From an uncultured Gammaproteobacteria bacterium (GTDB taxonomy: Bacteria; Patescibacteriota; Patescibacteriia; JACQRZ01): a DNA stretch of 64,000 nucleotides. Positions 23,022 to 64,000 of the stretch are shown piece after piece (position 1 is the first letter of the stretch; every line of letters starts with the position of its first letter). The stretch lies in the NCBI GenBank assembly GCA_964621085.1, contig CAZUKY010000001.1, forward strand, positions 100,937-164,936, given 5' to 3'. The notes beneath the pieces are model-generated. The model saw only the letters and a list, made by a program, of their open reading frames with translations, was not told where the DNA came from and did not search any database. The translations under genes were made by a program, and so were the position numbers.

Positions 23022-23058
23022 GCCGTACACGCGTGTATCCCCCCCTTTTTTTCATAAC

Positions 23059-23090
23059 GGCAGCCCCTACCCGGCTGCCGATATTTTTTT
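23059..23090 (+). terminator. rho-independent terminator ggcagcc-cctaccc-ggctgcc-T8
   Basis: downstream of the 22524..23021 gene. Confidence 0.5.
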
Positions 23091-23109
23091 AAAAACTTCT
23101 TGTTTGTTT

Positions 23110-24129: not shown

Positions 24130-24162
24130 GGTCGTTTGATTACGATTCGAGGGGTTGCGACC

Positions 24163-25179: not shown

Positions 25180-25224
25180 AGGAGCCTTTGCGTAACGGAC
25201 GGCGAATGTGCGTTTGCGAATGCG

Positions 25225-27129: not shown

Positions 27130-27136
27130 TGCCGTG

Positions 27137-27970: not shown

Positions 27971-27980
27971 TCACGTGTCT

Positions 27981-28979: not shown

Positions 28980-30488
28980 TCACTCTTCCCGCCGCTTCTG
29001 TGTCACATTGAATCCCAGCGGCCGACCCAGCATCAATCGGGTCTGCGCATCGATCGCGGGCAGCGCCGAAAATGCAATGATCGATATCGGCAAGAGAAGC
29101 CATTGCGCGACCATAAACAGGCGACGCCTGATCGAACGGGCCGCCGGTACGCTTGGGAGAAGAAAAAACGACAAAAAACCGATGATAAAGATTCCCGCCA
29201 TACTCACATTCAAAAGCGTCTCGAGTATGAAGGGGGCGTTCTGAACCAGGAGGGAGACGTGTTCCCCCTTTTCGGCAAACAAAAGCGGCAGACGGCCAAG
29301 AACAAGGATCAATAGAGGCGCGGTTGCCCACGTGTACATGCCTTCCGCCTGATTCCACAAAAGACGAATCTTCTTATGAAGAGGCATGAGGGGATCTTTC
29401 AAGAACGAACGTATCATGTACGGAAAGTGTTCCACCCCCCAGGCCCAGCGACGCTGTTGCTTATACAAATTTGCGAGACTCTGCGCAAGCGTATCGCCGA
29501 CGACCGTGTCCATCGAGAGAGGGATATACAGCGGCGTCACGGAATAGTCCCCGTGATAGTGCATGAAACACTGGAGAAAAATTCTGGAATCTTCGCTGAC
29601 AATATCCTTCTGCCAATACCCGACGTCGACAAGCGCGCGAAAGCTCATGCTGTGAGAAGAAAACGTAAAGAGCCGATCCGGACGCGCAAGCTCGCTCATC
29701 AGCCAGAATGTCGTGGAAAACGCGGCAAGGCGCATGGGTGCCGGTGAGGTCCAAATGTTATTGTTGTACAATACCACCGGCTGATAGCTTGTGCGCGTTG
29801 GGTTCGGATGCGACAGATACGCATCAGTCAGACAGGCAAAATAATCCGGGTGAACGACCGTATCGATATCGAACGCCGAAACGATCACGTTTTCGTACGG
29901 GATGCCCTTCTCATCGATGTATTCTCTCGCACGCTGTCCGGCATAGTTGAGATTCGCTCCTTTCGAGCGGATCTCTCCCGGCACATCGGCCGGATGAAGA
30001 GTCGAAAGAAATCCGGAAAAAATGGCGGCGAATTTTTTTTGCATCTCACTCGCGACGCGCGTGCAGTGCTCGGCAGCACGCTCTTCGCCAGCAAGAACGA
30101 CAATGCAGCGATCCATCGGATAACGCGATGCAACAAGCGCGCGGAGCGTGTGCTCGACAATCGCCGCATCTTCGTTGACCATGGGGAGAAAAATCAGATG
30201 ATAGATGTCACGCCAGGTCGGGTGCCGCTGCACACGGGCAGTCCAGTCGGTTTTTTGCGCCCGTCTATACTGCTGCCATGAAAACAAAAGAACACAGACA
30301 AAATAAAAAACCCTGCACAGCCAGTACAGGTCAAAAAGGATAATGAAAACAATGACGGCGAATGGATTGAAAATCGAAAAAACGATACCAGCGCCGAAAG
30401 TGAGCCAAACAAGCCCTCCAGGAAGAATCTCGAGAAACCGCTGAAAAAACGGCTGCGCGAGATCATGGCGCGCCACACTGGTTATCAT
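28980..30488 (-). CDS. membrane-bound processive GT2 synthase (cellulose/chitin-synthase-like)
   Basis: DxD motifs and QQRRWAWG (QxxRW) between TM helices; start chosen at MITSVARH (30488) to avoid a 128-nt overlap with archease. Confidence 0.75.
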   Translation of the reverse strand: MITSVARHDLAQPFFQRFLEILPGGLVWLTFGAGIVFSIFNPFAVIVFIILFDLYWLCRVFYFVCVLLFSWQQYRRAQKTDWTARVQRHPTWRDIYHLIFLPMVNEDAAIVEHTLRALVASRYPMDRCIVVLAGEERAAEHCTRVASEMQKKFAAIFSGFLSTLHPADVPGEIRSKGANLNYAGQRAREYIDEKGIPYENVIVSAFDIDTVVHPDYFACLTDAYLSHPNPTRTSYQPVVLYNNNIWTSPAPMRLAAFSTTFWLMSELARPDRLFTFSSHSMSFRALVDVGYWQKDIVSEDSRIFLQCFMHYHGDYSVTPLYIPLSMDTVVGDTLAQSLANLYKQQRRWAWGVEHFPYMIRSFLKDPLMPLHKKIRLLWNQAEGMYTWATAPLLILVLGRLPLLFAEKGEHVSLLVQNAPFILETLLNVSMAGIFIIGFLSFFLLPSVPAARSIRRRLFMVAQWLLLPISIIAFSALPAIDAQTRLMLGRPLGFNVTQKRREE

Positions 30489-30504
30489 ACAACTCGAGGT
30501 GCGG

Positions 30505-30936
30505 CTAACGTGTTGGAAGTGAAATGTCGCAGGAACAGGTTGCTCCGTCGCGCGACTCGGAACAGGGACCTTTCTTGATGCGCGGCTTTCCGAAAACGCC
30601 CGAGTGGCGCTGCGGATCAAAAGGCTCGCCATACGCTTCGCCGGTCAGGAGGTATTGGTTATCGTTGACCTTTTGAACCGAAGCGACGCGGAAATCACCC
30701 AAAACAAGCTGTCCCTCATCCTGGCGCACAATCAGCTCCTCAAGCCATGCGGCAAAGAGCGAGGCAATATCCGGAGCATCGATCACGATCTTGATGCGCT
30801 CGCCATCACTTACTCGCTCGCTGTCGCGCTGGAGGGAAAATAAGCCGAGCGCACCCTGGAGAAAAGCGTCTTTCACATCGCTGCCCTGTGCCGTGAGCGT
30901 ATAGGCATCCTTTTTTTGTTCGAGCGAAAACGGCAT
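30505..30936 (-). CDS. archease
   Basis: 143 aa; ALGLF, WLEELIV and LVLGDFRV...GEAYGEPFDPQRH segments parallel archaeal/bacterial archease. Confidence 0.55.
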   Translation of the reverse strand: MPFSLEQKKDAYTLTAQGSDVKDAFLQGALGLFSLQRDSERVSDGERIKIVIDAPDIASLFAAWLEELIVRQDEGQLVLGDFRVASVQKVNDNQYLLTGEAYGEPFDPQRHSGVFGKPRIKKGPCSESRDGATCSCDISLPTR

Positions 30937-43152: not shown

Positions 43153-45666
43153 TTACCAACTCTCGCCGCCGAGCTTTGAACGTTCGAGAATCTCAGCCTC
43201 CACGAGCGACCGATCGCGGCCGTATTTCAAGCGGGAAAGCTGCCGGATTGCTGCTGCGATCTTCGGATCGCCAATAGGCGGCGGCAGCGTCGCCATGTTA
43301 AAGGGTCGTGCAGCGGCATTATCGATCATGAGGCGGATATACGCTGTCCGCTGGGCAATATTCATCACATCAAACTCGTTGAAGACCGGCGCCATCTGCT
43401 TTGCGATGATTTCCGAATCATCGACGCCAACGCGGAACGCTATAATGCTGCCGACGTTTCCAAAAACCGCATCGCGCACCTTGGTATCGCCGGCCTTTGG
43501 CATCAGCTGCGCGACGAACTGATGTCCCAAAATAAGATTAAGCCGGTACTTGCGCGCTTCAGACAGGATAGTCGCGATGCTGTCGGTGATGAAGTTCTGG
43601 AACTCGTCGATATAGAGAAAGAAGTCGTGCCGATCTTTTTCATGCATGTCGGCCCGCGCTAAGGCGGCCATCTGAAGCTTTGTCACAATAATAAGACCCA
43701 AAAGATTGCTGTTCATCTCGCCGATCTGGCCCTTGGACAGATTTACCAAGAGAATCTTTTTCTTGTCCATGATCTCGCGGAAATTGAACCCGGAACGCGC
43801 CTGGCCGATGATATTGCGGATCATGTTGTTCTCAATGAAGCGACCGATTTTTGACACCAAATACGGCAGCATCTCGCCTTTGGTCTGGCCCGATGTCTGC
43901 GGTAGCTCCTTTTCCCAAAATGCCCGAATGATCGGATCGGTCACTTTTTGCAGCATGTGCTGCTGGAACTCCTTGTCGGTCAGAATGCGCGGTATCTCGA
44001 CGATGGTATTCGGATCATCCGGATGTGCCATGAGCGTGAGCATGGCGTTTCTCATGTAGTGCTCGAACATCGGCCCGATCATGGACGGGTCGGTCACCAG
44101 ACGGTAAAAAATCGCGATCATCTCTTGCGCGACGAAGTCCTTCTCCTCCTCCGTGCTCGCCTCGAGCATGTTCAACCCGACCGGACGCTCAACATCTGCG
44201 GGCTCGAACAGAATCACGTCATCGGCGCGTTCCGGCGGAATATTTTCCAAAATGGTCTGCAAATCCTGGCCGTGCGGATCGATATAGCAGCAGCCATGCC
44301 CGTTTCGAATATCTTGGACCATCATATTGAGCATGATGGTCGACTTTCCGACGCCGGTCATACCGATGACATAGACGTGACGCCGCCGGTCGGCCGGAAG
44401 CATGCGCACCAACTGCTTCTTGCCGCGGTAATTCGTCTCGCCGAGAATGATGCCCTCGGACGGCAGGTTGTGCGGCGGCGGTGCCGATCGCGCCTTGAGC
44501 CAGTCGATATTCGGCGTTTCCGTACTGGAAAGCGGCATATGATACAGGCTCGCGAGTTCTTCCGTATTCAGAACGATCACGCGCTTCTCATCGAAATTGC
44601 GATACAGCGCGTTGCGGATCATCTTGGACGCAGAAAAGTACTTCTGCTTTCGAAAATTAATGCCGGATTCTGGCCCCATGTACTGTGCAAAGGCGTTGGT
44701 AATATTGAAAAGATGCATCTTTGCGACATGCGCGTCATCCGCGACTGCGAGGATGCGGATATTCGTCTCAAAACCGACCTTCGAGCTTTTTTCCTCCATT
44801 GCCTTTATCAGCTCTTGCTCGAATGGCGAAAGCTTCGGCGAGCTGGCCGCCTCTTGCTGCTCTTTCAGTTTTTCCTTCTGGCCGGAAAAAACCGCCTTCC
44901 CGATCCAGCTGAACATGCTTTTGCCGTGCATCGCCTCTTCGAGACTCTTGCCTTTTTGCATATCGCGCGCAACCTTCTGCCCTCGCGCGCGCCAGCCCTT
45001 TTTCGCCGTCCGTATCATAATCTGGATCGCCGCTCCTTGCGATTCCTCGACCTTGCTGAGCGCATTGGTAAGTCCATTCAGAGGATCGGAATCCATTTTT
45101 TTATAGGATTTCAACGGAAAGATCCATGATTTTGTCAGAAGCAGCGGAGCGATCTCGATGACCCCGCGCGGACGGAAGATGTTATAATCGTCAACGACAG
45201 ACAGCTCGGCAGACGGGTATTGCGCGTGAAGCTGCTGCTCGAAAAATGCATGCAGATGCTCAGGGACGACCGCATAAAACTTGATCAGTCCCCCGCTTGC
45301 GACAATTTCAAGCGCGATCTGGTCGTCGCGCCCCAGAAAAAAAGAGCGCAGCTTGTTGCGGGATTTGACGTTCCCCAGCGTCATGTAAAACGCCTCAGCC
45401 ACGGCAATGAGTTCTTTGTAGTTTTTCTGGGATGATTTTTCCTCTTCTTCTTTTTTTGCGCCTTCCTTGGGCACGCGGATTTGGATAATCTTTTTATTGA
45501 GCGCAAGCGGAATCGCGAAGATGCGATGCAGCGCCGTTCGGACAATAATAAGCAAAAGCCACACCGCTGCAATACTTACCGTGCCGGCGAATGCAAAGAA
45601 AAAAAGCTCATTTTGCGCAATGAACTCAGCAAAGCTCGGCAGATTTTCCACAATCTGCTCATCCAT
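43153..45666 (-). CDS. FtsK/HerA-superfamily ATPase, type IV secretion VirB4/VirD4 (coupling protein)-like, with N-terminal TM
   Basis: 837 aa; Walker A GMTGVGKST, DPHGQ, Walker B FFLYIDEFQNF, C-terminal all-alpha region; N-terminal TM helix. Confidence 0.55.
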   Translation of the reverse strand: MDEQIVENLPSFAEFIAQNELFFFAFAGTVSIAAVWLLLIIVRTALHRIFAIPLALNKKIIQIRVPKEGAKKEEEEKSSQKNYKELIAVAEAFYMTLGNVKSRNKLRSFFLGRDDQIALEIVASGGLIKFYAVVPEHLHAFFEQQLHAQYPSAELSVVDDYNIFRPRGVIEIAPLLLTKSWIFPLKSYKKMDSDPLNGLTNALSKVEESQGAAIQIMIRTAKKGWRARGQKVARDMQKGKSLEEAMHGKSMFSWIGKAVFSGQKEKLKEQQEAASSPKLSPFEQELIKAMEEKSSKVGFETNIRILAVADDAHVAKMHLFNITNAFAQYMGPESGINFRKQKYFSASKMIRNALYRNFDEKRVIVLNTEELASLYHMPLSSTETPNIDWLKARSAPPPHNLPSEGIILGETNYRGKKQLVRMLPADRRRHVYVIGMTGVGKSTIMLNMMVQDIRNGHGCCYIDPHGQDLQTILENIPPERADDVILFEPADVERPVGLNMLEASTEEEKDFVAQEMIAIFYRLVTDPSMIGPMFEHYMRNAMLTLMAHPDDPNTIVEIPRILTDKEFQQHMLQKVTDPIIRAFWEKELPQTSGQTKGEMLPYLVSKIGRFIENNMIRNIIGQARSGFNFREIMDKKKILLVNLSKGQIGEMNSNLLGLIIVTKLQMAALARADMHEKDRHDFFLYIDEFQNFITDSIATILSEARKYRLNLILGHQFVAQLMPKAGDTKVRDAVFGNVGSIIAFRVGVDDSEIIAKQMAPVFNEFDVMNIAQRTAYIRLMIDNAAARPFNMATLPPPIGDPKIAAAIRQLSRLKYGRDRSLVEAEILERSKLGGESW

Positions 45667-47724: not shown

Positions 47725-47871
47725 ATATTATGAATCATCGCTCATGTATAGTACGCGATTCCCGAATACTGAACAAGTCAAAAATCAAGAACGGCCGAAC
47801 GGCCGTTCCTTTTGAATTAATTTGGAATTATCCTCCGATTGCCCTAGTCTTTCCTCCTCCTCTGCTCGGCC

Positions 47872-49980
47872 TCATTGGCACTGCGTTCCCGCCGTTTTCT
47901 TCGTATAGATAGCGAAGTTCGGATAGGGCGATGTCATCTCAAACCCGCCGAAGGAGATCCAGCGCGCTCGATACTCGTCATAACACTTTTCAGGATCGTT
48001 CTGCTGGGCCGGTGTCTGCGTTTCCACATATCCTTTCCATGGCGCCACGTCCCATCTGCTCGGATCCCTGTCGCTAGGACAGCGCGCAAGGTTCGGCTGC
48101 CAACTCGTCAGTGTTGTCTTATCGGCCGGATTCGTTTCATATACGTACAGCGGTTCGCACTTCTGCTGCGAAAGCGTCGCAGGTTTTTCGATGCGGTATG
48201 ACTGAAGCTGTACGGCGCCTTCGTACCCATAATACCTGTACAACTGCTTATCAGCCAAGTTTCCGTTATCGGCTCGTATATAATTAAGTGTCAATCTGCC
48301 GTTTGCCGGAAGCGAAGCGAGCCCCTTCTCGTCCACTCGTCCGAATACGTAAACAATTAGAGGTACACCCGTTGGCAGATCAGAAAAAATCGACTCTCCG
48401 ACTTTCTCAAATGCAAGACGGTTCCCAGTCGGGCGCTCATATTTTCGGAATGTTCCAACTTCTCTATTTCCCTCATAAACCGTAATTGCGACCTCCTCGA
48501 ACGCCGCTAATTCTTTCGCCTCGGATTCAGTAAAGAACATGCCGCGTACATTGCGCGCATCCTTTGGTAGCGTCATAGTAAAGGATCCGAACATCACGGT
48601 TAGCGGCACCGAGTCAACCCGGGCACTGATTGTGCCTGAGGTATCGACGCTGACGGAGATCCGCTCAGGTAAAGATGCGGTCGGAGAATCCTTCAGACTC
48701 ACGCGATACTGCTGCAAGAGCACCGGTTGTTCAAGTGTATATTTTTTACGATCTCCCAACGCGTATATGCCGCTCAACTGAAGTCTTCCTGCCGACGGAA
48801 GGGACTTTGCTATAGCAGGACTTGTTGATGCGACAACCTCAAAAAGAAGCTGAGTTTGCGTCGGAAGTCCTTTCAGTATTTCATTAACTTTTTGGCCGGC
48901 GATGGTGTCGAAGTGCAGCTTGCCGGAATCTGCCTGCCGCGTCCATATGGCACTGCTTCCGATGCGCTCCCCAGTTTTAGCGTTTTTCACATTCAGGGTA
49001 AAGTACTGGAAAGCGGAAGGAAAAGCGGTCTTTGTTTCCGGTTCAAAGGTTACGTCTACTACCCGATCGACTGAGCCTGGAAGCGTGACCAGTGCGCGCG
49101 CAAGCGGCACGGATGCGCCTTCCTTGCCCTTCAGTTCAATCTCGGTAGTCAGATCTTCTTCGGTTTTCGGCTTGACGCTGATGCGCTCATCTCGGGAAAT
49201 AGTTACCGTGAAATCCTGATTCGGACGATCCTTAGTCTGGAATTTTTGCGATTGGTTGGAGCCAAGGATGCTGAATACTGTCGACTTGCCCTCGAACGAA
49301 CCCGACTTACTGTACACGTCGGCGATCAAACTGAATGTCAGTGGCGTTTCCGTTGGAAGGCCCTTGTAGAGCACTTCCTTTTTCGTAGTCGTATAATCGA
49401 AAATGACATCCGCTTCAGTGTTTTTCAGGGCAGAAATCGGCTGGATAACGATATCCTCTCCTATTATTTCTCCGAACTGATTCTGTGCGCGCAGCCGATA
49501 TCCTGTGACATATGGCAGCTGAAGCGGGCTCGATCCGGAGCTGTCATGGAGCTGAAAGATGACTGAGTTGATGAAGTAGACGCCGGCCGGCAGTGTTACT
49601 TCCGTGCGCGCAAGAGTTGCGGAGGATAGATCGCCAAGAAAATTTTCCGGCCTTAAGGTAGTGTCAATAGAACGCTCCTTCGCAATAACCCTGATCGGTT
49701 CAACAGTTTTTACGCATTGTTTGAGTTTCTCTTGGTACTCGTACCCAGTTTCGCACGTACAGGTTCGGGTATCACTGACGATCAATGACTCCTTGCACGG
49801 CAGGCAGATGGACTGGCCGTACTCCCCGCAGACATCGGCTATTTTGCTTGGCATCGTAGAATTCATGGCAGACGAGAGAAGCGCAGCGGCAACGCCCGCC
49901 GCGCCAAACCCGACAATCGCAAGGGTCTTTACCCGCGTCCCGGAGAGTATTCCGACCTTGGTGGCCGTTCGTTCGCTCAT
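47872..49980 (-). CDS. large secreted multidomain hypothetical protein (702 aa) with N-terminal Cys-rich module
   Basis: TM/signal anchor; CGEYGQSICLPCK...CTCETGY...C EGF-like spacing; C-terminal Cys pairs. Confidence 0.5.
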   Translation of the reverse strand: MSERTATKVGILSGTRVKTLAIVGFGAAGVAAALLSSAMNSTMPSKIADVCGEYGQSICLPCKESLIVSDTRTCTCETGYEYQEKLKQCVKTVEPIRVIAKERSIDTTLRPENFLGDLSSATLARTEVTLPAGVYFINSVIFQLHDSSGSSPLQLPYVTGYRLRAQNQFGEIIGEDIVIQPISALKNTEADVIFDYTTTKKEVLYKGLPTETPLTFSLIADVYSKSGSFEGKSTVFSILGSNQSQKFQTKDRPNQDFTVTISRDERISVKPKTEEDLTTEIELKGKEGASVPLARALVTLPGSVDRVVDVTFEPETKTAFPSAFQYFTLNVKNAKTGERIGSSAIWTRQADSGKLHFDTIAGQKVNEILKGLPTQTQLLFEVVASTSPAIAKSLPSAGRLQLSGIYALGDRKKYTLEQPVLLQQYRVSLKDSPTASLPERISVSVDTSGTISARVDSVPLTVMFGSFTMTLPKDARNVRGMFFTESEAKELAAFEEVAITVYEGNREVGTFRKYERPTGNRLAFEKVGESIFSDLPTGVPLIVYVFGRVDEKGLASLPANGRLTLNYIRADNGNLADKQLYRYYGYEGAVQLQSYRIEKPATLSQQKCEPLYVYETNPADKTTLTSWQPNLARCPSDRDPSRWDVAPWKGYVETQTPAQQNDPEKCYDEYRARWISFGGFEMTSPYPNFAIYTKKTAGTQCQ

Positions 49981-50082
49981 ATCTTTTTAAAAAATGGGAA
50001 AAACATGTATAAAATTATCCACATGCATTAAGGGTATCATACTGCTCAGTTTGCCGCACTATCATTCTGAAGAACTCTCTAT

Positions 50083-51111
50083 CTAGTGGATATCCTTCGG
50101 ATCCATGTCTACCCATTCGGCGACGACCTCCTTAATGTGCGCAACGCCGACGAGGGGTTCTTGATCCGGCGGACAGGTTTTGCACGCCCGCTTGGCTGCA
50201 TGATGTAAAATGGCTGCCGCATGCTCGTGACGCGAACCGCGCTGGACATTCACTTTTGCCGCCGCCTCGTCCATCACATCGATCGCTTTGTCGGGCAGGC
50301 GACGGCCTTTTATGTATTCTTGGGATAGCCGTACCGCAGCACGGATCGCCTCGTCTGCGATTTTCACCCCATGATACTCCTCGTAGTTCCCTTTCAGGCC
50401 TTGCAGGATATTGATTGACTCATCAACAGTCGGCTCATCAACCAGCACAACCTGAAACCGTCGATCCCAGCTTTCGTCCGGCTGAATATAGGACTCGTAC
50501 TCCTTCTGGGTCGTAGCGCCCACAAGCTGCAAATCACCACGCGAGAGCGCCGGTTTGAGAATATCCGAAAGATTCACGGCGCCTTCCGCCCCTTTTGCCT
50601 GAGTAACCGTATGGATTTCATCAATAAAAAGGATGATTGTGCGTCCGCTTTTGCGAATGTCGCTCACGATCGCTTTGATGCGCTGCTCAAAATCCCCTCG
50701 ATACTTCGTCCCGGCAAGCAGCTCGGAGACCTGGAGCAAGAGCACGCGTTTATGACTCAGGAGCTCCGGAATGTCCCCGTCGGCGATGCGCTGCGCAAGA
50801 CCCTCGACGATCGCCGTCTTCCCGACGCCGGGCTGACCAAGCAAGATAACGTTATTTTTCGTGCGCCGGGAAAGGATCTGAATGACGCGGGTTATCTCCT
50901 CCTCGCGCCCGATGACCGGATCAACGCCGCCTTCGCGCGCAAGTGCTGTGAGGTCGGTCGCATACAGGTCGAGCGTTTGCGTCGCCGAGCCGCCGATCCG
51001 GAATGCGGATGGGGACGGTGACTTTTTGAAATATAAAAAAGCCGCTGTTCCGATGCTAATGACAGCGACCCATTTGAGAATGTCCGCCAAAGCCCACGGT
51101 GCTTCTGCCAT
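50083..51111 (-). CDS. membrane-anchored Clp/Hsp100 D1-only AAA+ ATPase
   Basis: N-terminal TM; ClpA/B D1 motifs IGREEEITRVIQILSRRTKNNVILLGQPGVGKT, ILFIDEIHTV, sensor; ends where the D1 small domain ends; no middle domain or D2. Confidence 0.65.
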   Translation of the reverse strand: MAEAPWALADILKWVAVISIGTAAFLYFKKSPSPSAFRIGGSATQTLDLYATDLTALAREGGVDPVIGREEEITRVIQILSRRTKNNVILLGQPGVGKTAIVEGLAQRIADGDIPELLSHKRVLLLQVSELLAGTKYRGDFEQRIKAIVSDIRKSGRTIILFIDEIHTVTQAKGAEGAVNLSDILKPALSRGDLQLVGATTQKEYESYIQPDESWDRRFQVVLVDEPTVDESINILQGLKGNYEEYHGVKIADEAIRAAVRLSQEYIKGRRLPDKAIDVMDEAAAKVNVQRGSRHEHAAAILHHAAKRACKTCPPDQEPLVGVAHIKEVVAEWVDMDPKDIH

Positions 51112-51248
51112 ATACTTTAAATATATATTTCAACTCTTCTTTAATTCTAGGGGAAGGTTGTAAATGAGGCAACTCATGTTTGGATATGCTATACTGGGGG
51201 CATAGTCCAAATCACGATTAATCATAAACAATAACGAATCCGCGTTTT

Positions 51249-53252
51249 ATGCGAGCAAAAATATCGGCGCTGCTGATTGCGGCGCTGTTGGTGCCGCAGG
51301 GCACCGCGTTTTCGGCAGAACATGCTGTCGAGACAACCCAGACACCTCCGGCAGAGAATGCTGCACCGCCGCAAGAGAGCATAGAAACCATAGAGAATAG
51401 TAAAGAGGATCACAGCCGCCTCAAAGAACAGGAACAGCGGCGATTTGATGACAAGCGCTTTGAGGGCGAACGGCGCCACGAAGACGATCGCCGGCGATCC
51501 GAAGAGCAAGAGCGGCAGCGCTTTGAACAAGACGAACAGCGTCGTGCCGAGGACGAACAACGCATGAACGAACGGCGATTTGAGGATATGAAGCGCAACG
51601 TGGAGCGTTTCATGCGCGATATTTCACGCATGGAACGGGAGGCAGAGCGAACGGCAAAACGCCTTGAGCGGTGCGAGTTCGGCATTCCGGCGGAACTGAC
51701 GAAGACGCTTGATACTGCAAAAGGCCTTGCCGAAAAGGTCAAAACGGCCAACTCGGCTGATGAGCTTGAGGATATCATGTTTGAGTTTGAGGATGTCGGC
51801 TACCTTATGGGAGAATGGGGGCGTCAGATGGGCCCCTTACAGCAGGTCTGTGAGATGCTAGGAAACGCCGATCGCGAGGTTCAACGACTCCTTCGCGAAC
51901 AGGATCGCATGGAGCAGCGAGCGAAACAGCAAAAAATCGATGCGTCTCTGATGCTTGGAAAACTGCGGGAATTATCTCGAAAAATGGAGGAAACGCTCGA
52001 GCGCGCCCGCTCACTGGCGCAAAAGAGCCCTGAGGATGCGGTATTTTTAATACAAGATGAGATATTTTTCCGAATGGAAGAGTATCACAACGCGCAACGC
52101 GGTCTGGAGATGGCCCTTGACCTGCGCCGCGGACTGCAAGATGCCGGAGGGGAGATCTGGGAGTTTAAAGCGCTCATTAAAGAATTGAAAGCGAAGAAAA
52201 AAGACACGACGCGCCTTGAGCGTCTTCTAGGACAAATGGAAGGAATCAAAGGAAAGCTTGATGGGATGGCACAGCGCTCAGTCGATCCAGACAGCGTCCA
52301 GCCCCTCATCGAAGAAGCCTTCGACCTCCGTGAGGAATTTGTCCGCCTGGCAAGCCACCTTGGCGGAGGAGCACGGTTCATGGACGAGAAGTCTGAAAAT
52401 GCAGATGAAGAGGACTTTCGCGTAGATCTGCCGTCAGGGTTTAAACCGTCTGCAAAAGCCCGTGCGTCGCGTGACGCGGAGCGATCGGGCGGTGGCGGTG
52501 GTGGAGCAGACGCCCAAGTTCAAGAAATCAAGGCAAAAGCCGAACTCCTTGCCGACAACCGCCTCGATGCGATTCTTTCGGAGCTGAAGCAGTTGCGTGA
52601 TCAAGTAAAGGAGCAGCAAGCGGAAATCAAATACCTGCGCACACTTACACAGGATTTCGCGCAGCTCAATGAACAAATGCAGACACAGCTGAATACATTT
52701 ATCACCTACGGTGTCGATGAGAACTCCAAGCGCCTTGGCGAGGGCGAGCGCGCCGCGGTGCTGCACTCGTACAAATCGGCATTCCAAGCATTGCCCGAAG
52801 ACGAGCGCGGTATCGAAGATGTCATTAAAATTGTCAACGGACGCTTTCCAAGTCAACGAAGCGGCGTAGCGGAAAAGCAGGCGAAGAAGTTTTTCCGGGA
52901 GATTTACAAGCGCGTCGCAAATATGGAAAACGAAAACGACAAGGCGGCCATCATGGTTATGGCGTACGGGTTGCGCCAAGCGGCGCAAAACCGTAACCTC
53001 GAGAGCGAAAAACGAGGCATTGAGACGTTCAAAAACATCTTCGGATACCTGCCCACCACGACCGAGGAATGGAACGCCATGCAGGCCATCACCTACTCCG
53101 GCGCCGTGCGGCGGCCGGATAGTGACAAGGACGGCCTGTCCGATGCTGATGAAAAGCTCATCGGGACCAACTCAGACAAACCCGATACCGACGGCGATGG
53201 CATTCCAGACGGCGACGAGGTCGATGAAGAATTCGATCCGCTCAAGAAATAA
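51249..53252 (+). CDS. secreted coiled-coil protein with C-terminal thrombospondin type-3-like calcium-binding repeats
   Basis: signal peptide, long E/R/Q-rich heptad region, C-terminal DSDKDGLSDADE...DTDGDGIPDGDE. Confidence 0.5.
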   Translation: MRAKISALLIAALLVPQGTAFSAEHAVETTQTPPAENAAPPQESIETIENSKEDHSRLKEQEQRRFDDKRFEGERRHEDDRRRSEEQERQRFEQDEQRRAEDEQRMNERRFEDMKRNVERFMRDISRMEREAERTAKRLERCEFGIPAELTKTLDTAKGLAEKVKTANSADELEDIMFEFEDVGYLMGEWGRQMGPLQQVCEMLGNADREVQRLLREQDRMEQRAKQQKIDASLMLGKLRELSRKMEETLERARSLAQKSPEDAVFLIQDEIFFRMEEYHNAQRGLEMALDLRRGLQDAGGEIWEFKALIKELKAKKKDTTRLERLLGQMEGIKGKLDGMAQRSVDPDSVQPLIEEAFDLREEFVRLASHLGGGARFMDEKSENADEEDFRVDLPSGFKPSAKARASRDAERSGGGGGGADAQVQEIKAKAELLADNRLDAILSELKQLRDQVKEQQAEIKYLRTLTQDFAQLNEQMQTQLNTFITYGVDENSKRLGEGERAAVLHSYKSAFQALPEDERGIEDVIKIVNGRFPSQRSGVAEKQAKKFFREIYKRVANMENENDKAAIMVMAYGLRQAAQNRNLESEKRGIETFKNIFGYLPTTTEEWNAMQAITYSGAVRRPDSDKDGLSDADEKLIGTNSDKPDTDGDGIPDGDEVDEEFDPLKK

Positions 53253-53318: not shown

Positions 53319-54401
53319 CTACAGTCCCTCCTTTCGAAGCTCTTCAAGCAGCTGGCGCTGACGCTTCGAGAGATTTTTTGGAGAAGCCACCTGAATGACA
53401 ACAAGCAAATTGCCTCTGCCATGGCGCCGCACATGAGGCACACCAAGGTTGGCCAAGCGCAACACCTGGCCCGATTGCGTCCCGGGCGGAATTTTGAGAT
53501 CAACAGGCCCGTCATGAGTATCAATTCGGATGGTATCTCCCAATACGCTTTGGCTATATGCGATCGACTGCTGCAAGATAAGATCGTCCCCTTCTCGCGC
53601 AAAATGCGGATCCGCCTTGACATGCACGCGAATGAAGAGATCGCCGGGCGTTCCGCCGAGCTGGGCGGACTCGCCTTGCCCCGTCACCCGAAGCGTTTCG
53701 CCATTGCCAATTCCAGCGGGAATCGCAACCTCGAGCTCGCTCTGCCCTTTTTCAACGCCGGTTCCGCGGCATATTTTGCACGGCTTCTCGATTGTCTTTC
53801 CAACTCCTTTGCATGCGGGGCATTGCACAGTGGTCTGGATGTTTCCCAATATGGTTTGGCGCACCGACATCGTCTGTCCTCTGCCGCCGCACGTTGGACA
53901 AGTGGTCACCGGCGTGCCCGGTTCTGCGCCTCCGCCGCCGCAGTGTTTGCACGAGATTGATTTGTAGAGCGAGATCGTTTTCTTTGTTCCGAAAAGCGCC
54001 TCCTTGAATTCAAGCGTCACATCGACAGCGATATTCGCGCCCCTGCGCTGCGCGCTTGAGCCGGCCCGAGATCCGCCAAAACCAAAAAAGTCGCCGAACA
54101 CATCGCCCAGATCTCCGAAATCGAACTGCGCGCCGCCCCCGGTTGCGCCTTGCGCAAAATCCTGCCACGAAAAACCGCCGCCCCCCGGCATTCCCTGCTC
54201 GAAGGTGCGTCCGAACTGATCGTACTGTCGGCGCTTTTCCGGATCGGACAAGACCTGGTAGGCCTCGTTCACTTCCTTAAACTTCTTCTCATCGCCCCCT
54301 TTTTTATCGGGATGGTACTGATGCGCGAGCTTGCGAAAGGCGCGTTTAATCTCATCGGCCCCGGCGCCACGGGAAACGCCGAGTATCTGGTAATAGTCCA
54401 T
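53319..54401 (-). CDS. dnaJ: chaperone DnaJ
   Basis: J-domain with HPD, G/F region, four CxxCxGxG zinc-finger repeats. Confidence 0.95.
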
Positions 54402-54481
54402 GTCAATAGCTTCTTAGCTTGTAGCTGATTAGCTCATGAGCTTCCTAAGAAGCTACAAGCTAATCAGCTAAGAAGCTCGCA
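54402..54481 (-). other. structured dnaK-dnaJ intergenic element built of NNNAGCT heptamers forming overlapping inverted repeats
   Basis: units tcttagct/tgtagct/gattagct/catgagct ... agctacaagctaatcagctaagaagct. Confidence 0.4.
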
Positions 54482-56398
54482 TTAATCTTTCTTTGTAAAC
54501 TCAGCGTCGATCGGCCCCTCGTCAGACTGAGACTCCTGGCTGCCCGGCTGCTGTGCTTCGCCTGCGCCGCTGGCAGCGCCCGGTGCCGCTGAGGCGTCCG
54601 GCTGCTGATACATGGCACTGCCGATTTTTGAGATGCTCGCATTCAGATCCTCCAATGAGCGCTTAATCGCCTCGATGTCATCGCCGTCTTTCACCGCTTT
54701 CAGAGCTGCGAGCTTACCCTCCACCTCAGACTTCACATCTGCAGACAACTTATCCCCGTATTCCTTCACCGTTTTTTCCGTCTGATACAATGTCGCCTCG
54801 GCGGTATTTTTCACCTCTATCATCTCACGCTTTTTCTTGTCTTCGTCCGCGTGCAGCTCCGCATCAGTGCGCATGCGCTCGATTTCTTCCTGCGTAAGGC
54901 CAGTTGAGGCCGTAATGACGATTTTTTGCTCCTTGCCGCTTGCCTTATCTTTTGCCGAAACATTCAAGATGCCATTCGCATCAATATCGAACGTAACCTC
55001 GACCTGCGGCACCCCGCGCGGAGCGGGCGGAATGCCGTCAAGGATGAACCGACCCAGCGACTTGTTGTCCGATGCCATCTCGCGCTCTCCTTGCAGCACA
55101 TGGATCTCGACAGAGGTCTGGTTATCCGCCGCTGTTGAAAAAATCTGACTCTTTGAGGTTGGGATTGTCGTATTGCGATCGATCAGCCGCGTCATGACGC
55201 CGCCAAGCGTTTCAAGACCCAGCGAGAGCGGCGTGACATCCAAAAGAAGGACGTCCTTGACCTCGCCCCGCAAAACGCCAGCCTGAACAGCTGCCCCCAT
55301 GGCGACTACTTCATCAGGATTGACGGAAATGTTCGGCTTTTTGCCGAAGAACTTCTCGACCGTCTGCTGCACCAGCGGCATGCGCGTCATGCCCCCCACC
55401 AAGATCACCTCATTGATATCCGAGACCGACAGCCCCGCATCGGCAAGCGCCTTGCGGCAGGGTTCCAACGTCCGTTCGACAAGGCCCCCGACCAACTCCT
55501 CGAGGTTGGCGCGCGTCAGCTTGAGAATCAAGTGCTTCGGACCGGCCGCATCAGAGGTGATAAATGGCTGATTGATTTCTGTTTCGATACTTGAGGAAAG
55601 CTCGTGCTTTGCCTTTTCCGCAGACTCCTTCAGGCGCTGCAAGGCAAGCTGATCCTTGGAAAGATCGATGCCTTCCTGTTTTTTAAACTCAGCGATAATC
55701 CAACCGATGATCAGCTGGTCAAAGTCGTCTCCGCCCAAATGGGTATCGCCGTTTGTCGCCTTTACCTCGACCGTATCCTCGGCAACTTCAAGAACTGAGA
55801 CGTCAAACGTCCCGCCGCCAAGGTCGTACACGACGATTTTCTCATCTTTCTTTTTATTGAAACCATAGGCGAGCGCGGCAGCAGTCGGCTCGTTGATGAT
55901 ACGCTTTACCTCAAGTCCCGCGATGCGGCCCGCATCCTTTGTCGCTTGGCGCTGCGAGTCGTCAAAATATGCCGGAACCGTAATAACCGCCTCGGTGATT
56001 TTTTCGCCGAGCCGCTCCTCTGCGTCGCTCTTCAGCTTCTGTAGAACCATTGCGGAAATCTCCTGCGGCGCGTACTCGTTGCCGCCCATTAAAACCTTGA
56101 CGCCGCTGTCTGACTGCACAATCTTGTATGGCATCAACGTCACGTCGCGCTGCACTTCCGGATCGTCGTACCGGCGGCCGATGAGTCGCTTTACCGAATA
56201 AATGGTGTTTTCCGGATTTGTCACCGCTTGGCGCTTCGCCAGTACGCCGACGAGACGCTCGCCGCTTTTGCTTGTCGCGACAACGGACGGCGTGGTTCGG
56301 TTTCCCTCTTTATTTTCAAGGACTTTTGGCGTGCCGCCCTCAATAACTGCCATGCATGAGTTTGTCGTACCAAGATCGATACCAAGTATTTTTGCCAT
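54482..56398 (-). CDS. dnaK: chaperone DnaK (Hsp70)
   Basis: [16 protein letters not shown], full-length Hsp70 similarity. Confidence 0.97.
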
Positions 56399-56409
56399 AG
56401 GTTTCCAAA

Positions 56410-56982
56410 TTATTTTTTCTCGTTCGAATCACCTTCGCCCGCTGGTTGCGGTTTTTTATTGACAATGACCTTTGCCGGAACGATAAGCGTGCCGTTGTGC
56501 CGATATCCCGCGCTTATCTCTTGCGTTATCACACCCTCGTCCATGTCCTCGCGCCACTCATGACCGACGGCCTCGTGTACGCTGGGGTCAAATGGTGTTC
56601 CTGCCGCATCGGCGATTTCCTCAACACCCGTGCTGCGCAAAATATCCTTCATCTGGCGGTAGATATGTTCGATGCCCTTGATCCATTCGGAGGCCTTCAG
56701 TTCGTCGGGAACGTGCTGAAATGCCTTGCGAAAATTCTCAACAACCGGCAGATACTGCATCAGGGATGCCATCCGCGCAAATGTCGCGAGTTCCGCGGAT
56801 CTTTTTTCCTGCTCGTTTTTAAAGTTTACGTAATCTGCTTTTGCGCGCTTCCACCCATTCAGATACTCATCGCGTTCCTTTTCAAGTGCGCTCTTTTGCT
56901 CTTTGAGGTCTTCTATTTCCTTGAAGGCCCCTTCAAGGGTCATCGTATTCTCATCAGACATAGAGATACCAAACATTAACAA
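56410..56982 (-). CDS. grpE: nucleotide exchange factor GrpE
   Basis: coiled-coil N-terminus plus GrpE C-terminal beta domain. Confidence 0.9.
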
Positions 56983-57677
56983 ACTTCGTGTGTCGCTGCG
57001 AGTGCGTTTTTCAACGTATTCATGAGGGCGATGTTACGGGAATAATTCATGCGCATCGGTCCCAAAATTCCGGCAATGCACTCTTGGCGATTGAATGGGA
57101 AGCGCATGAGAACAGCGCTGCATTGGGGGGAAAAACGGCTTTCCTGGCCGATCCACACCTGCGGCTCGCGCGTTACCGATACTGCAATCCGAGCGACGAG
57201 GGTATCAAGAGTGTCAATGATTCGGGCAAGCGTGCGTCGAAAATCAGCATCCTCGTATTCGGGTTTTTCCGCTGCATAGGAAAGGCCAAAAAAAACTGCT
57301 CCGCTCTTGCGATGCACGAATGCGATCTCCTCGGCATATGCCGAAAGAGTTTGCGCAAGCGTGCGCAGTGCCGCTTCTTCGCTTTCCTGGTCCAACGCGG
57401 CTGCAAGATCCGCGTGCGCGCGTGCGGGAAGACGCGACGGGCGGACATACTGGAGATAAATCCGATATCCCGTCTCTGTCGGAATCCGTCCGGCGGAAAG
57501 ATGCGGCTGATACATGTAGCCCAATTCTTCAAGGGCCGCCATACAGTTTCTGATCGTCGCAGAACTGCATCCCAGCCGGTATTTTTCGACCAGGGTAACC
57601 GATCCGATCGGATGCGCAGATGCGATATACTGCTCGATAATGCGGGTGAGAATATCCCGCTTTCGCTGATCAATCAT
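56976..57677 (-). CDS. hrcA: heat-inducible transcription repressor HrcA
   Basis: N-terminal wHTH RKRDILTRIIEQYIASAHPIGS; operon order hrcA-grpE-dnaK-dnaJ. Confidence 0.9.
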   Translation of the reverse strand: MIDQRKRDILTRIIEQYIASAHPIGSVTLVEKYRLGCSSATIRNCMAALEELGYMYQPHLSAGRIPTETGYRIYLQYVRPSRLPARAHADLAAALDQESEEAALRTLAQTLSAYAEEIAFVHRKSGAVFFGLSYAAEKPEYEDADFRRTLARIIDTLDTLVARIAVSVTREPQVWIGQESRFSPQCSAVLMRFPFNRQECIAGILGPMRMNYSRNIALMNTLKNALAATHEVC

Positions 57678-57693: not shown

Positions 57694-57720
57694 TTAGCAC
57701 TCTATTATTTTGACTGCTAA
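57694..57720. promoter_or_regulatory. CIRCE operator TTAGCACTC-N9-GACTGCTAA
   Basis: 8/9 + 9/9 match to the CIRCE consensus TTAGCACTC-N9-GAGTGCTAA, 17 nt upstream of the hrcA start. Confidence 0.75.
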
Positions 57721-60887: not shown

Positions 60888-61361
60888 TTACACAAGCGGT
60901 TTCTGCGCTTTCGACGCGAAGAATTTTTCTTTCAGTGGGCGCGGAAAAGCAAACATCTCCGGATGCATCGCGTAGGCGATCAAAACAAACAAATAGACGA
61001 CATGGTCATCAACGAACGGATTGCTCTTGATGGGCAAGACCGCAAGCCACATGAGAAGCATCAGAACAGCTCCGCTCCAACCGGCAATGCGCGCATACCG
61101 TCCGATCGCAAGACTCATCCCGATGCCGAACAATCCTGCCAAAAAAAGAAGTTCGACCATGGGATTTCCTGCAAGCCCATTGAACAGCCAAGCGAACGGA
61201 CCCGAGACCTTGGCAAGAAATCCCGCGGTCGCCGAACCGCCCGCAAGCACCGCGCGCTCGGCAGGCGTCGAGATGCCCAAGCCCAAGAGCTTATCCGCAA
61301 ATGCCCAGAGAAAAATGAAGGCCAGCGATATCCGAGCCAGAAAAAGAGGGAGCGTATTCAT
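60888..61361 (-). CDS. DoxX-family membrane protein
   Basis: 157 aa, 4 TM, FADKLLGLG start typical of DoxX. Confidence 0.55.
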   Translation of the reverse strand: MNTLPLFLARISLAFIFLWAFADKLLGLGISTPAERAVLAGGSATAGFLAKVSGPFAWLFNGLAGNPMVELLFLAGLFGIGMSLAIGRYARIAGWSGAVLMLLMWLAVLPIKSNPFVDDHVVYLFVLIAYAMHPEMFAFPRPLKEKFFASKAQKPLV

Positions 61362-62062
61362 AATCGAATAGATACGTTAGTTATATCTTTTTGGAAAAGA
61401 GGAACCATGTCGCTCATTTCCTCTATAGAAAACGGGGTATATGACGCGAAAACCGGATCAAGCGTAATCTCCGGCCGGAATTGCTGAAGATAGAGCGTGT
61501 CAGCACCCGCCAAAGACTTCGCCATCCGCGCAAGCGTCTCAGGCGAGTGGAGCTCCCGCACCAGCGTTACCCGAAATTCGGAGGGGATAGAAGATTGCTT
61601 AATAAGCTCGACACTTTCCGCTACCTTCTCATAGCGAACAGTTAGCCCCATAAGGTCAGTATACCCCATCTCATCGGTTTTGAAATCCATCGCAATATAA
61701 TCAATAAGCTCTTTGTCAAAAAGCGTCCGAACAATCTCGGGACGGGAGCCGTTGGTATCCAACTTGACCAAAAAACCACGGGTCTTGATCTCGCTGACAA
61801 ACTGCTCAAGTCTGGGCTGGAGCGTTGGCTCACCGCCCGAAACCACCACGCCGTCCAACAACCCCTGCCGCTTCTCCAAAAAAGAGAAAAACGTATCCGG
61901 ATGAATGAAGCTCGGCGCATTTTCTCGGATGATTTTCGGATCGACAAGTTCGGGGTTGTGACAGAACCCGCACCGAAAATTGCACCCGGCCGTAAAAACG
62001 ATGCAGGCGATCTTGCCGGGATAATCGATCATCGAATATTGTTGGACGCCTCCGATGAGCAT
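61358..62062 (-). CDS. nrdG: anaerobic ribonucleotide reductase activating protein (radical SAM)
   Basis: CNFRCGFCHN radical-SAM cluster motif; adjacent to nrdD. Confidence 0.85.
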   Translation of the reverse strand: MLIGGVQQYSMIDYPGKIACIVFTAGCNFRCGFCHNPELVDPKIIRENAPSFIHPDTFFSFLEKRQGLLDGVVVSGGEPTLQPRLEQFVSEIKTRGFLVKLDTNGSRPEIVRTLFDKELIDYIAMDFKTDEMGYTDLMGLTVRYEKVAESVELIKQSSIPSEFRVTLVRELHSPETLARMAKSLAGADTLYLQQFRPEITLDPVFASYTPFSIEEMSDMVPLFQKDITNVSIRL

Positions 62063-62286
62063 ACCGTACCCGATTCGATGTCTTCTCTCGTTCCATACCG
62101 CTCGGAAAACGTCTTGTTTGCCGCAACACTTTCCTTAAAATGCGTCCGCGAGACGTGTTCTGACTTCTTCCCGATATTGAAATGGGAGACCGGCCGATGA
62201 TAGCCCATCACCCGCGTCCAGACCTCGCAGCGCGTGCGCCGCGGCATTTTTTGCTCGTGCATATACGTGAATATTAATTTATTCAT
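62029..62286 (-). CDS. nrdD: NrdD C-terminal glycyl-radical segment encoded as a separate ORF
   Basis: RCEVWTRVMGYHRPVSHFNIGKKSE matches the NrdD Gly-radical loop (RVxGY...N.GK..E); overlaps the nrdG start; the homologous part may start at MPRRTR (62247). Confidence 0.55.
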   Translation of the reverse strand: MNKLIFTYMHEQKMPRRTRCEVWTRVMGYHRPVSHFNIGKKSEHVSRTHFKESVAANKTFSERYGTREDIESGTVCSSEASNNIR

Positions 62287-62295
62287 AACAAATTA

Positions 62296-62444
62296 ATGTG
62301 GCTGAGCTTGCGTTTTCGGCGACTTTCGAAGCAAGCGAGCATGGTTTTTCGCCGAAGGCGAAAATCGCGCAGCAGAGACGAGGTGTGCTTCGCGCTGGCG
62401 AAGCACACCGTTCGCCGAAAGCGCAAGCTCAACCACTCACTCTC
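62296..62444. repeat. GC-rich nested inverted repeats between the two nrdD pieces
   Basis: gaggtgtgcttcgc-gctg-gcgaagcacacc (12-bp stem), ttttcgcc-gaag-gcgaaaa, and outer arms gagcttgcgttttcggcga / tcgccgaaagcgcaagctc. Confidence 0.55.
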
Positions 62445-64000
62445 TCACCGCGCCGCTGCCGCACTACGATGCTTTACGCGAAACACCTCATCAAACTGCG
62501 GAGCGCCGATAATGCCATTTTCCGTATCGCAACGGGGACAGAAGTCATACTCGCCAGCCAGATAGCCATGGATCGGGCAGATGGAAAACGTCGGCGTTAT
62601 CGTGATATACGGCAAACGGAAATTCGAGAGGATTTTTCGCACCAGATTCCGGCAGACCTGCGCACTCGAGATCCGCTCGGTCATGTAACAGTGGAGGACC
62701 GTGCCGCCCGTGTATTTTTTCTGCAAGTCATCCTGAAGCGAGAGCGCCTCAAAGACATCATCCGTGTAGCCGACCGGTATTTGAGACGAGTTGGTATAAT
62801 ACGGGGCTTCCTGCGTTCCCGCCTGTATGATTCCCTCAAACCGCTTCTGGTCTTCTTTTGCAAACCGATACGTCGTACCCTCTGCAGGAGTCGCTTCGAG
62901 ATTATACAAATTGCCCGTTTCTTCCTGATACGAAATTAGCCGCTCCCGCATAAAGTCCAAAATTTTTGCCGCGAACTGCTGGCCCCAGTGCGATGTGATG
63001 CTGTCCCGATCGCCCGTAAAATTACGGATCGCCTCGTTTATGCCATTAATCCCGATTGTCGAAAAATGGTTGTGGAGGCTTCCCAGGTACCGGCGTGTAT
63101 AGGGAAATAGCCCGGCATCGATCCATTTTTGAATCTCTTTGCGCTTGATCTCCAGCGAGGCCCGTCCCGCATCCATCAGATAGGAAAGCCGATCGAAAAA
63201 CGCCTCCGGCTTCCCTGCCGTCAGATGACCGATGCGCGCTGCATTGATTGTCACAACACCGATCGACCCGGTCATCTCGGCAGATCCGAACAGTCCGCCG
63301 CCGCGCTTGCGCAACTCCTTCAGATCGAGCTGGAGTCGGCAGCACATCGACCGGACATCGCCCGGATTGAGGTCGGAGTTGATAAAATTCTGAAAGTACG
63401 GCGTCCCGTATTTTGCCGCCATTTCGAAGAGTGGAAGGTTCTTCGGATCCTCCCATCTGAAATCTTTGCCGATATTGTATGTCGGGATCGGGAAGGTAAA
63501 CGCGCGCCCGTGCGCATCGCCGCGCGTCATCACCTCGATGAACGTCTGATTGATCACGTCCATTTCTTTCTGCAGTTCCCCAAAGGTATGCGCAAACTCG
63601 ACGCCGCCGAGCAGCAGCCGGCGGTCTTTCAGATCCTCTGGACAGTCCCAGTCGAGCGTAATATTCGTAAATGGTGTCTGGGTGCCCCAGCGCGATGGAA
63701 TATTGAGATTGAAGGCAAACGACTGCATATTCTGATACACGTAGCGATAGACCTTCTGCTCAACATACCGCTCGCGCGCCTCCTCGCTCCCGAACTGCAC
63801 CCCTGCCGCGCGCAGATCCTCGCGCGTCTCGATCTCGTACTTTTTCACAAACGGCGCCAAATACGTATCAAAACTGGAGAACGCCTGTGCGCCCGCCCAC
63901 TCGTTTTGGAGTGTTCCCAAAAAATTCACCATCTGCGCGACCGCCGACGATAGATGCCGCGGAGCGGTTGACTCGATCTTGTCTGGGACGCCGTTGAATC
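62445..64000 (-). CDS. nrdD: anaerobic ribonucleoside-triphosphate reductase, catalytic body (5' partial; truncated after the Zn ribbon)
   Basis: SMCCRL, C-terminal CPIHG...CPRC Zn ribbon then stop; the frame is open to the window edge (first ATG at 63932). Confidence 0.85.
   Translation of the reverse strand, partial: FNGVPDKIESTAPRHLSSAVAQMVNFLGTLQNEWAGAQAFSSFDTYLAPFVKKYEIETREDLRAAGVQFGSEEARERYVEQKVYRYVYQNMQSFAFNLNIPSRWGTQTPFTNITLDWDCPEDLKDRRLLLGGVEFAHTFGELQKEMDVINQTFIEVMTRGDAHGRAFTFPIPTYNIGKDFRWEDPKNLPLFEMAAKYGTPYFQNFINSDLNPGDVRSMCCRLQLDLKELRKRGGGLFGSAEMTGSIGVVTINAARIGHLTAGKPEAFFDRLSYLMDAGRASLEIKRKEIQKWIDAGLFPYTRRYLGSLHNHFSTIGINGINEAIRNFTGDRDSITSHWGQQFAAKILDFMRERLISYQEETGNLYNLEATPAEGTTYRFAKEDQKRFEGIIQAGTQEAPYYTNSSQIPVGYTDDVFEALSLQDDLQKKYTGGTVLHCYMTERISSAQVCRNLVRKILSNFRLPYITITPTFSICPIHGYLAGEYDFCPRCDTENGIIGAPQFDEVFRVKHRSAAAAR

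Follow-up and report, generated by a model that had tools for sequence, protein, structure and literature searches.

A conserved Patescibacteria family of Clp/Hsp100 proteins composed of a D1 module and a predicted membrane anchor

We analysed a 64-kb stretch of contig CAZUKY010000001.1 (the window), which carries at 50083..51111, on the minus strand, a gene for a 342-residue protein made of a transmembrane (TM) helix and the first AAA+ module (D1, or AAA-1) of a Clp/Hsp100 ATPase, without the second module (D2, or AAA-2). The gene is a member of a conserved protein family and not a broken gene. As judged from its sequence and by analogy with known machines, we give a probability of about one half to the reading that it is a functional member of a Patescibacteria (candidate phyla radiation, CPR) family of membrane-tethered, single-ring hexameric unfoldases or extractases that would resemble Msp1/ATAD1 in principle.

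The open reading frame (ORF) runs from an ATG to a TAG located at 50083-50085, and both the ORF list and the sequence place it exactly at 50083..51111. The preliminary description of this DNA had given the same interval, to which we add the strand. An identical protein (P0001) was retrieved by protein search from a 239.6-kb NCBI contig. A Pfam scan of the 342-residue protein identified an AAA domain at residues 88-205 and a Clp-type AAA_lid_9 domain at residues 229-304 (E = 2.7e-28), and returned no Clp_N (PF02861), AAA_2, ClpB_D2-small or Peptidase_M41. The best-scoring NCBIfam model is that of ClpB, which aligns residues 43-297 with ClpB 152-406 at 372 bits for a cut-off of 1232, and the ClpA model aligns residues 43-340 with ClpA positions 164-439. 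The models for ClpB, ClpA, ClpV, ClpG and ClpK are all matched through their D1 part alone, with scores far under the full-length cut-offs. The top PDB sequence matches are likewise confined to D1 and involve residues 151-405 of B. subtilis ClpC and 150-405 of T. thermophilus ClpB (E ~1e-92). These alignments to ClpB and ClpC, a check that the preliminary description had proposed, confirm the domain boundaries.

Class I Clp/Hsp100 proteins are characterized by two AAA+ modules; the window protein has the D1 signature and a single P-loop. The N-terminal Clp_N domain is missing, residues 1-44 being occupied by the TM helix and a linker, and the M-domain of the ClpB/ClpC subgroup is missing as well. 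The ClpP-docking loop of ClpA and ClpC is located in D2, and with D2 absent from the 342-residue protein there is no IGF/L-type loop. Pfam, NCBIfam, PDB and the structural model described below thus agree with the preliminary description of a TM helix followed by a complete D1 that lacks M-domain, D2 and ClpP loop. Its remark that this architecture is not a standard one also holds, as no NCBIfam model attains its cut-off and our literature search found no description of the family. Such proteins are known in public databases under generic names alone, and no curated family model covers their architecture.

We built an AlphaFold2 monomer model from 76 family sequences, with a mean predicted local distance difference test (pLDDT) score of 88.3. 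Foldseek superposes this model on the D1 of ClpC, ClpB and ClpA over ~290 columns, at 2.0-2.8 Å and 45-52% identity; the ClpC proteins of B. subtilis, S. aureus and M. tuberculosis (ClpC/ClpC1) fall within these ranges and share all D1 motifs. The N-terminal TM helix comprises residues 5-30 (51022..51099; all coordinates within the gene are on the minus strand), is supported by Kyte-Doolittle windows and by a pLDDT of up to 96, and is followed by two lysines. It is connected to D1 by a flexible linker, residues 31-44 (50980..51021), with a pLDDT of ~50 and a length and sequence that vary across the family. The large α/β subdomain of D1 spans residues 45-228 (50428..50979), as defined by the Pfam AAA match, the alignment with ClpC and ClpB D1 and Foldseek, and the small, or lid, subdomain spans residues 229-291 (50239..50427), as defined by AAA_lid_9. 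Residues 292-319 (50155..50238) form a segment of low confidence (pLDDT 53-77), located where ClpB, ClpC and longer relatives of the window protein harbor the M-domain. Finally, residues 320-342 (50086..50154, VGVAHIKEVVAEWVDMDPKDIH) comprise a β-strand and a helix, modelled at residues 320-333 with a pLDDT of 96-97. This strand and helix correspond to the last D1 element, which follows the M-domain in ClpB and ClpC and leads into D2. The protein had been described as stopping at the end of the D1 small domain. It does end with D1, but this is not a simple stop, since the strand and helix at 320-333 are retained. According to the model, D1 is complete and not clipped.

The residues that operate a D1 motor are preserved throughout the 76 aligned family sequences, in which invariance was judged. 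The Walker A motif GQPGVGKT (residues 92-99; 50815..50838) has invariant G92, G95, V96, K98 and T99. Pore loop 1, KYRG (residues 136-139; 50695..50706), aligns with AGTKYRGEFE of ClpC and has invariant Y137, R138 and G139, Tyr137 corresponding to ClpB Tyr251. In the Walker B motif ILFIDEIHT (residues 160-168; 50608..50634), I160, L161, F162, D164, E165 and H167 are invariant, as are T200 of sensor 1, six residues of the lid motif LPDKAID at 272-278 (L272, P273, D274, K275, A276 and D278) and W333 in the last helix. The Arg fingers R217 and R218, identified from the ClpC alignment and motif statistics, are also invariant and directly follow the sequence DESWD (residues 212-218 in all; 50458..50478). 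Here the family departs from other Clp proteins: the interface motif reads PDESWDRRFQ, versus EKDAALERRFQ in ClpC, with DAALE-RR in both ClpB and ClpC. Ser214 and Trp215, directly before the Arg fingers, are the counterparts of ClpB Ala328 and Leu329. In ClpB, A328 and R331/R332 are found at the subunit interface, where this position controls ATPase activity, and Walker A and Arg-finger mutants of AAA-1 have oligomerisation defects (PMC5319980). Judged from the alignment, the motor is under purifying selection. The combination of invariant motor residues and a changed interface thus indicates a predicted working ATPase ring with a retuned interface, and not a decaying remnant.

The membrane anchor is conserved in the family. 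The best 19-residue Kyte-Doolittle window of the window protein scores 1.74 and precedes the lysine pair. In the alignment, each family sequence starts with a hydrophobic helix followed by Lys or Arg; the best 19-residue window reaches at least 1.6 in 98 of 118 relatives, and several of the others are visibly mis-started inside the helix. Mean flank charges in the relatives are +0.19/-1.19 on the N-terminal side and +2.60/-0.34 on the C-terminal side of the helix, corresponding to an N-out/C-in orientation. This positive-inside bias predicts that the ATPase faces the cytoplasm, as its requirement for ATP also demands, and would place it on the cytoplasmic face of the membrane rather than in the envelope.

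We searched 5.8 billion proteins for relatives. This analysis revealed at least 120 clusters (90% identity) of proteins of 322-411 residues that are 50-72% identical to the query over ~95% of its length; one 290-residue fragment and one 492-residue mis-start are among the listed clusters. The nearest family members share 66-72% identity with the window protein, and some members are encoded on contigs of 100-310 kb. Named clusters belong to Candidatus Magasanikbacteria or Patescibacteria and are labelled 'AAA family ATPase' or 'Clp protease ATP-binding subunit'. A representative library of 1.84 billion proteins contains about 10 clusters at 50% identity with the TM and D1 layout, and its top 150 matches include no form with TM helix, D1 and D2. 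Four entries of that library (P0151, P0230, P0247 and P0266; 323-392 residues) begin at D1 without a TM helix or N-domain, and may be fragments or soluble D1-only forms of other lineages.

We also scanned one genome per GTDB species with a degenerate, family-specific DNA pattern for the motif [YF]I.P[DE]E...RRFQ, at the position of which ClpB and ClpC carry YIEKDAALERRFQ. The scan returned 80 loci, of which 58 contain short D1-only ORFs (44-74% identity), 11 contain full-length Clp of other phyla, and the rest are chance matches. The titles of the D1-only loci name Magasanikbacteria (20), Patescibacteria group (8), Parcubacteria (3), Kerfeldbacteria (3), and Falkowbacteria, Uhrbacteria and Paceibacter (one each). 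The remaining 21 of the 58 are TPA_asm records titled 'uncultured Gammaproteobacteria bacterium', one of them a 931-kb chromosome (OZ246400.1, L010); these titles appear to be wrong, given the Patescibacteria-like gene content. Two of the loci, L013 and L027 (CAZHXK010000073.1 and CAZHXK010000069.1), come from a single metagenome-assembled genome and carry two partial D1-only ORFs that overlap at query residues 163-302, which are either two paralogues or an assembly duplication. The family is defined by the TM helix with its basic residues, by D1, by an end located just after the hIKEVVAEWVGM..EIH helix, and by the [YF]I.P[DE]E...RRFQ motif. The window protein carries every one of these elements and falls inside the family, which is monophyletic in a neighbour-joining tree.

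The same searches bear on whether the gene is a recent truncation, a pseudogene, or an assembly or frameshift artefact of a normal clpC or clpB. The unusual length is the only point in favor of such an origin, to which we assign a negligible probability: the same boundaries recur in the 120 or more clusters and in 58 species-level loci at 44-74% identity, the TM helix is conserved, and the family is monophyletic. Using tblastn with two D2 queries, we found no D2 in the 58 D1-only loci of 8 kb, in four loci of 21 kb or in the 64-kb window, and D2 matches were confined to the 11 full-length Clp loci of other phyla. The whole window contains a single Clp-type P-loop. The AT-rich spacer that separates the gene from the next one downstream (49981..50082, minus strand) has stops in all three frames, and no D2 similarity lies beyond it. 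The preliminary description had noted a non-coding gap of 30 nt without a continuing frame; the absence of a continuing frame is confirmed, but the gap measures 102 nt. It had called for a search for the same short form in related genomes and for a check for a frameshift into D2, and had held that such a frameshift, or a form unique to this assembly, would overturn its reading. The form is found in at least 120 clusters and 58 species-representative loci, no frameshift joins a D2, and neither objection holds. Frameshift and truncation are thus ruled out by conservation together with the absence of downstream D2 similarity. A phage origin and membership of a defence system were also considered and rejected. 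A scan of IMG/VR for a phage origin gave generic Clp D1 matches (~40-297), none with the TM helix or the C-terminal tail, and PADLOC matches to anti-phage defence proteins (TRIP13 and IetA, 26-27 bits over ~90 residues) are weak and reflect a generic P-loop.

The family comprises two length classes. Members of the ~395-residue class insert ~55 residues at the low-confidence stretch of the window protein. This long form aligns with residues 142-487 of B. subtilis ClpC, a stretch that includes the M-domain and reaches the end of D1, and its insertion is modelled as a two-helix hairpin (residues 321-337 and 343-371). In the long-form relatives, a single coiled-coil hairpin as long as that of ClpC is inserted at the position where ClpC carries its own. 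The tree was computed by neighbour joining (BLOSUM62, D1 core, no bootstrap) on the family and 34 full-length Clp D1s, from which the family is separated as a single group. Its deepest branches are long forms, short forms occupy at least five separate clades, and the window protein belongs to the largest clade without an M-domain. The family is roughly equidistant (0.385-0.42) from every sampled ClpC-like D1, for which reason a particular full-length sister group was rejected. Among named full-length proteins, the ClpC proteins of Leptospira and Selenomonadaceae come closest to the family, and the top full-length matches to the family profile are ClpC of Leptospira, Selenomonadaceae, Clostridiales and Ezakiella, or unnamed proteins. 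The clp genes reported in the TM7x paper were rejected as CPR Clp genes because they belong to the host rather than to the CPR organism. The ClpC-length hairpin of the long form suggests that the family arose from a two-ring, ClpC-like ancestor, which would have lost D2 once, together with Clp_N, the TM helix taking the place of the latter. Tentatively, since the tree carries no bootstrap, at least five clades would then have lost the M-domain independently of one another.

The surroundings of the gene in the window were described as well. A weak promoter-like site, TTGCCT-17-TAGAAT (51144..51172, minus strand), was located by consensus scan 32 nt 5' of the ATG, and the downstream spacer contains a second one. 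Beyond this spacer, a 702-residue protein with an N-terminal hydrophobic segment is encoded at 47872..49980 on the minus strand and has no Pfam or PADLOC match. The scan found no terminator between the two genes and a strong one (10-bp stem, 47787-47810) after the second; they are possibly co-transcribed. The 702-residue protein had been called Cys-rich, a term that its 10 cysteines (1.4%; six in residues 51-89 and four in residues 608-701) do not justify. The divergent neighbor, at 51249-53252 on the plus strand, encodes a 667-residue protein with a signal peptide, a highly charged coiled coil, a Gly run around residue 405 and two C-terminal bacterial TSP3 (calcium-binding) repeats, Pfam detecting no other domain. 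The complete hrcA-grpE-dnaK-dnaJ operon is found at 53319-57677 (minus strand), 2.2 kb from the D1-only gene. Just upstream of hrcA lies the only CIRCE element of the window (57694-57720, minus strand; TTAGCACTC-N9-GACTGCTAA, one mismatch). No clpP was found among the scanned window ORFs.

Across loci, the immediate neighbors are not conserved. No homologues of the 702- and 667-residue proteins were found by tblastn in eight loci (L001-L008, four of them non-redundant), and clustering of 56 non-redundant loci gave housekeeping synteny; a conserved partnership with these two proteins was therefore rejected. The envelope function that the preliminary description had read from the flanking secreted proteins is not supported either, as these neighbors are not conserved and the charge bias puts the ATPase on the cytoplasmic face. 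The recurrent neighbors in the 56 loci are a small methyltransferase (17 loci), UPF0102/YraN (13), an 81-residue protein (11), an EpsG-like membrane protein (10), NusA (9), CARDB proteins (8) and YidC (5).

Other genes of the window were recorded as side observations. A TrwB/VirD4-like coupling ATPase of 837 residues (43153-45666, minus strand; PADLOC mad8, 59 bits) is located ~4.4 kb from the D1-only gene, and a 703-residue TrwB-like gene (1-1915 in L004-L006, the P0119 loci) is located ~8 kb from it. The presence of such a gene in both settings may be due to loose synteny or to chance. A run of envelope genes at 21346-30632 (minus strand) comprises a GT4 glycosyltransferase, a VKOR-family protein, MreB, a DUF4012 protein and three GT2 glycosyltransferases, with an RseP-like M50 protease (17794-18864) and YceG (16251-17405) close by. 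At 61358-63932 (minus strand), the anaerobic ribonucleotide reductase NrdD is found beside a radical-SAM activase, which is consistent with an anaerobic lifestyle; the NrdD ORF has 495 residues and is matched by its Pfam model only from position 91, so that the called start may be wrong.

The architecture can be compared with several known systems. Relative to ClpC, the family has a TM helix in place of Clp_N and lacks D2, the ClpP-binding loop and the main motor ring, and the window subfamily additionally lacks the M-domain. With the ClpB/Hsp104 disaggregases the window protein shares the D1 fold and motifs but neither the long M-domain nor D2 nor the N-domain, and ClpB is its best-scoring NCBIfam model only at the low score given above. 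FtsH is a bacterial AAA+ hexamer that is anchored in the membrane and acts from the cytoplasmic face on membrane proteins. The window protein is likewise predicted to be membrane-anchored and cytoplasm-facing, and might work in principle as an FtsH without its protease, although the two TM helices, the periplasmic domain, the classical AAA module and the M41 zinc protease of FtsH are all absent. Msp1, an AAA extractase with a single ring, is anchored by its N-terminus and threads the substrate with aromatic pore loops (PMC7018516). The layout predicted here from sequence, with a lone AAA ring on the cytosolic side and a single TM anchor at the N-terminus, is reminiscent of Msp1/ATAD1. However, Msp1 belongs to the classical AAA clade, whereas the window protein carries a Clp-type lid (AAA_lid_9) and all of its nearest sequence relatives are Hsp100 D1; neither the PDB sequence search nor the fold search placed a classical-AAA structure above Hsp100 D1. 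The resemblance to Msp1/ATAD1 would thus be a functional analogy and not homology within the subfamily. According to two reports, the Hsp100 lineage has also given rise to natural single-ring proteins, Skd3/human CLPB and the torsins, of which some are associated with membranes (PMC7343390, PMC9934407). These proteins retain a D2-type module, while the window family retains a D1-type one, as in a mirror-image reduction.

In the mechanism that we propose, six subunits would assemble into a single ATP-driven ring on the inner side of the cell membrane, held there by six TM helices and their 14-residue flexible linkers. Tethering would raise the local concentration of subunits and favor assembly, which is plausible for a lone D1 because the Walker A and Arg-finger mutants of ClpB AAA-1 lose oligomerisation (PMC5319980). 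The Tyr137 pore loops may then grip and thread a polypeptide. Candidate substrates are misinserted or damaged membrane proteins, stalled secretory precursors and membrane-associated aggregates, which would be pulled or unfolded and, once released, could be handed on to DnaK/DnaJ/GrpE, FtsH or YidC. By analogy with the Msp1/ATAD1 design, the likely job of the protein is thus the extraction or unfolding of membrane or membrane-proximal proteins. A bolder form of this proposal, which we consider doubtful, is that the D1 ring would be the sole Hsp100-class machine of Magasanikbacteria-type CPR bacteria. AAA-1 would there be an autonomous threading motor and the bacterial counterpart of Msp1/ATAD1 for membrane proteins, gated in the long forms by a ClpC-like M-domain that several lineages would later have discarded.

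Several observations weigh against an extractase. Threading in ClpB is driven mainly by AAA-2, with AAA-1 as a regulated auxiliary ring (PMC6593972), so that an autonomous D1 motor cannot be taken for granted. No functional partner (ClpP, adaptor, D2 or protease) is associated with the gene across the neighborhoods. No CIRCE element was found 5' of the D1-only gene, which is thus not visibly part of the HrcA regulon encoded nearby, and heat-shock control by HrcA was rejected because the one CIRCE of the window precedes hrcA instead. Finally, yidC lies 2.4-6 kb from the D1-only gene in four of the seven longer loci, which is suggestive of a link to membrane biogenesis but may also simply reflect shared ancestry in one lineage.

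The division of labor in ClpB makes a regulatory or tethering subunit a serious rival, if in our view an unlikely one. Such a subunit would co-assemble with or dock onto a two-ring ClpC or ClpB, or onto DnaK via the M-domain of the long form, and would recruit or modulate it at the membrane without threading through its own ring. The M-domain hairpin of ClpB and ClpC is a docking site for Hsp70 or adaptors, and the long subfamily retains it, but the window subfamily has none. The gene lies close to the dnaK operon in the window, a proximity that is absent from the other loci, and the locus-level search found full-length Clp in none of the D1-only loci. Moreover, the invariant residues include the pore-loop Tyr, Walker B, sensor 1 and the two Arg fingers, for which a passive tether would have no need.

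The protein might instead be a dedicated remodeller of one envelope assembly, such as a pilus or competence machinery, a type IV-like secretion system or a surface polymer synthase, much as ClpV acts on the sheath of the type VI secretion system. The CARDB, EpsG-like and YidC neighbors (8, 10 and 5 loci) point in this direction, as do the TrwB/VirD4-like ATPases, at distances of ~4.4 kb in the window and ~8 kb in L004-L006. This seems to us quite improbable, as no single one of these neighbors occurs in most of the 56 loci and the gene immediately downstream is different and non-homologous in nearly every locus. Adjacency to surface genes carries little weight in any case, because CPR genomes are generally rich in surface proteins. 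That the protein ends exactly at the D1/D2 boundary, retaining the last D1 helix which leads into D2 in ClpA, ClpB and ClpC, would also fit a split Hsp100, in which a separate D2 polypeptide encoded elsewhere stacks under the D1 ring to rebuild a two-ring machine non-covalently. The halves of split genes usually remain adjacent, and with no D2-like sequence in the window and in the 21-kb and 8-kb loci, and no TM-D1-D2 intermediate among the top 150 representatives, this arrangement is very unlikely.

To our knowledge, the characterised single-ring relatives of Hsp100 (ClpX, HslU, Skd3/CLPB and the torsins) all keep a D2-type module. The new element here is an Hsp100 reduced to a D1 ring and a membrane anchor; the architecture is solid, and the function is one that we infer. 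As long as neither a biochemical activity nor a substrate has been demonstrated, the finding is of modest practical value. Nature has nonetheless provided, in this family, a test of whether an AAA-1 ring is able to form and to thread a substrate without D2, and the subfamilies with and without an M-domain form a built-in series on the gating of D1 by this domain. The family may also be a pointer to an unrecognised component of membrane proteostasis in CPR bacteria, whose reduced genomes hold little redundancy.

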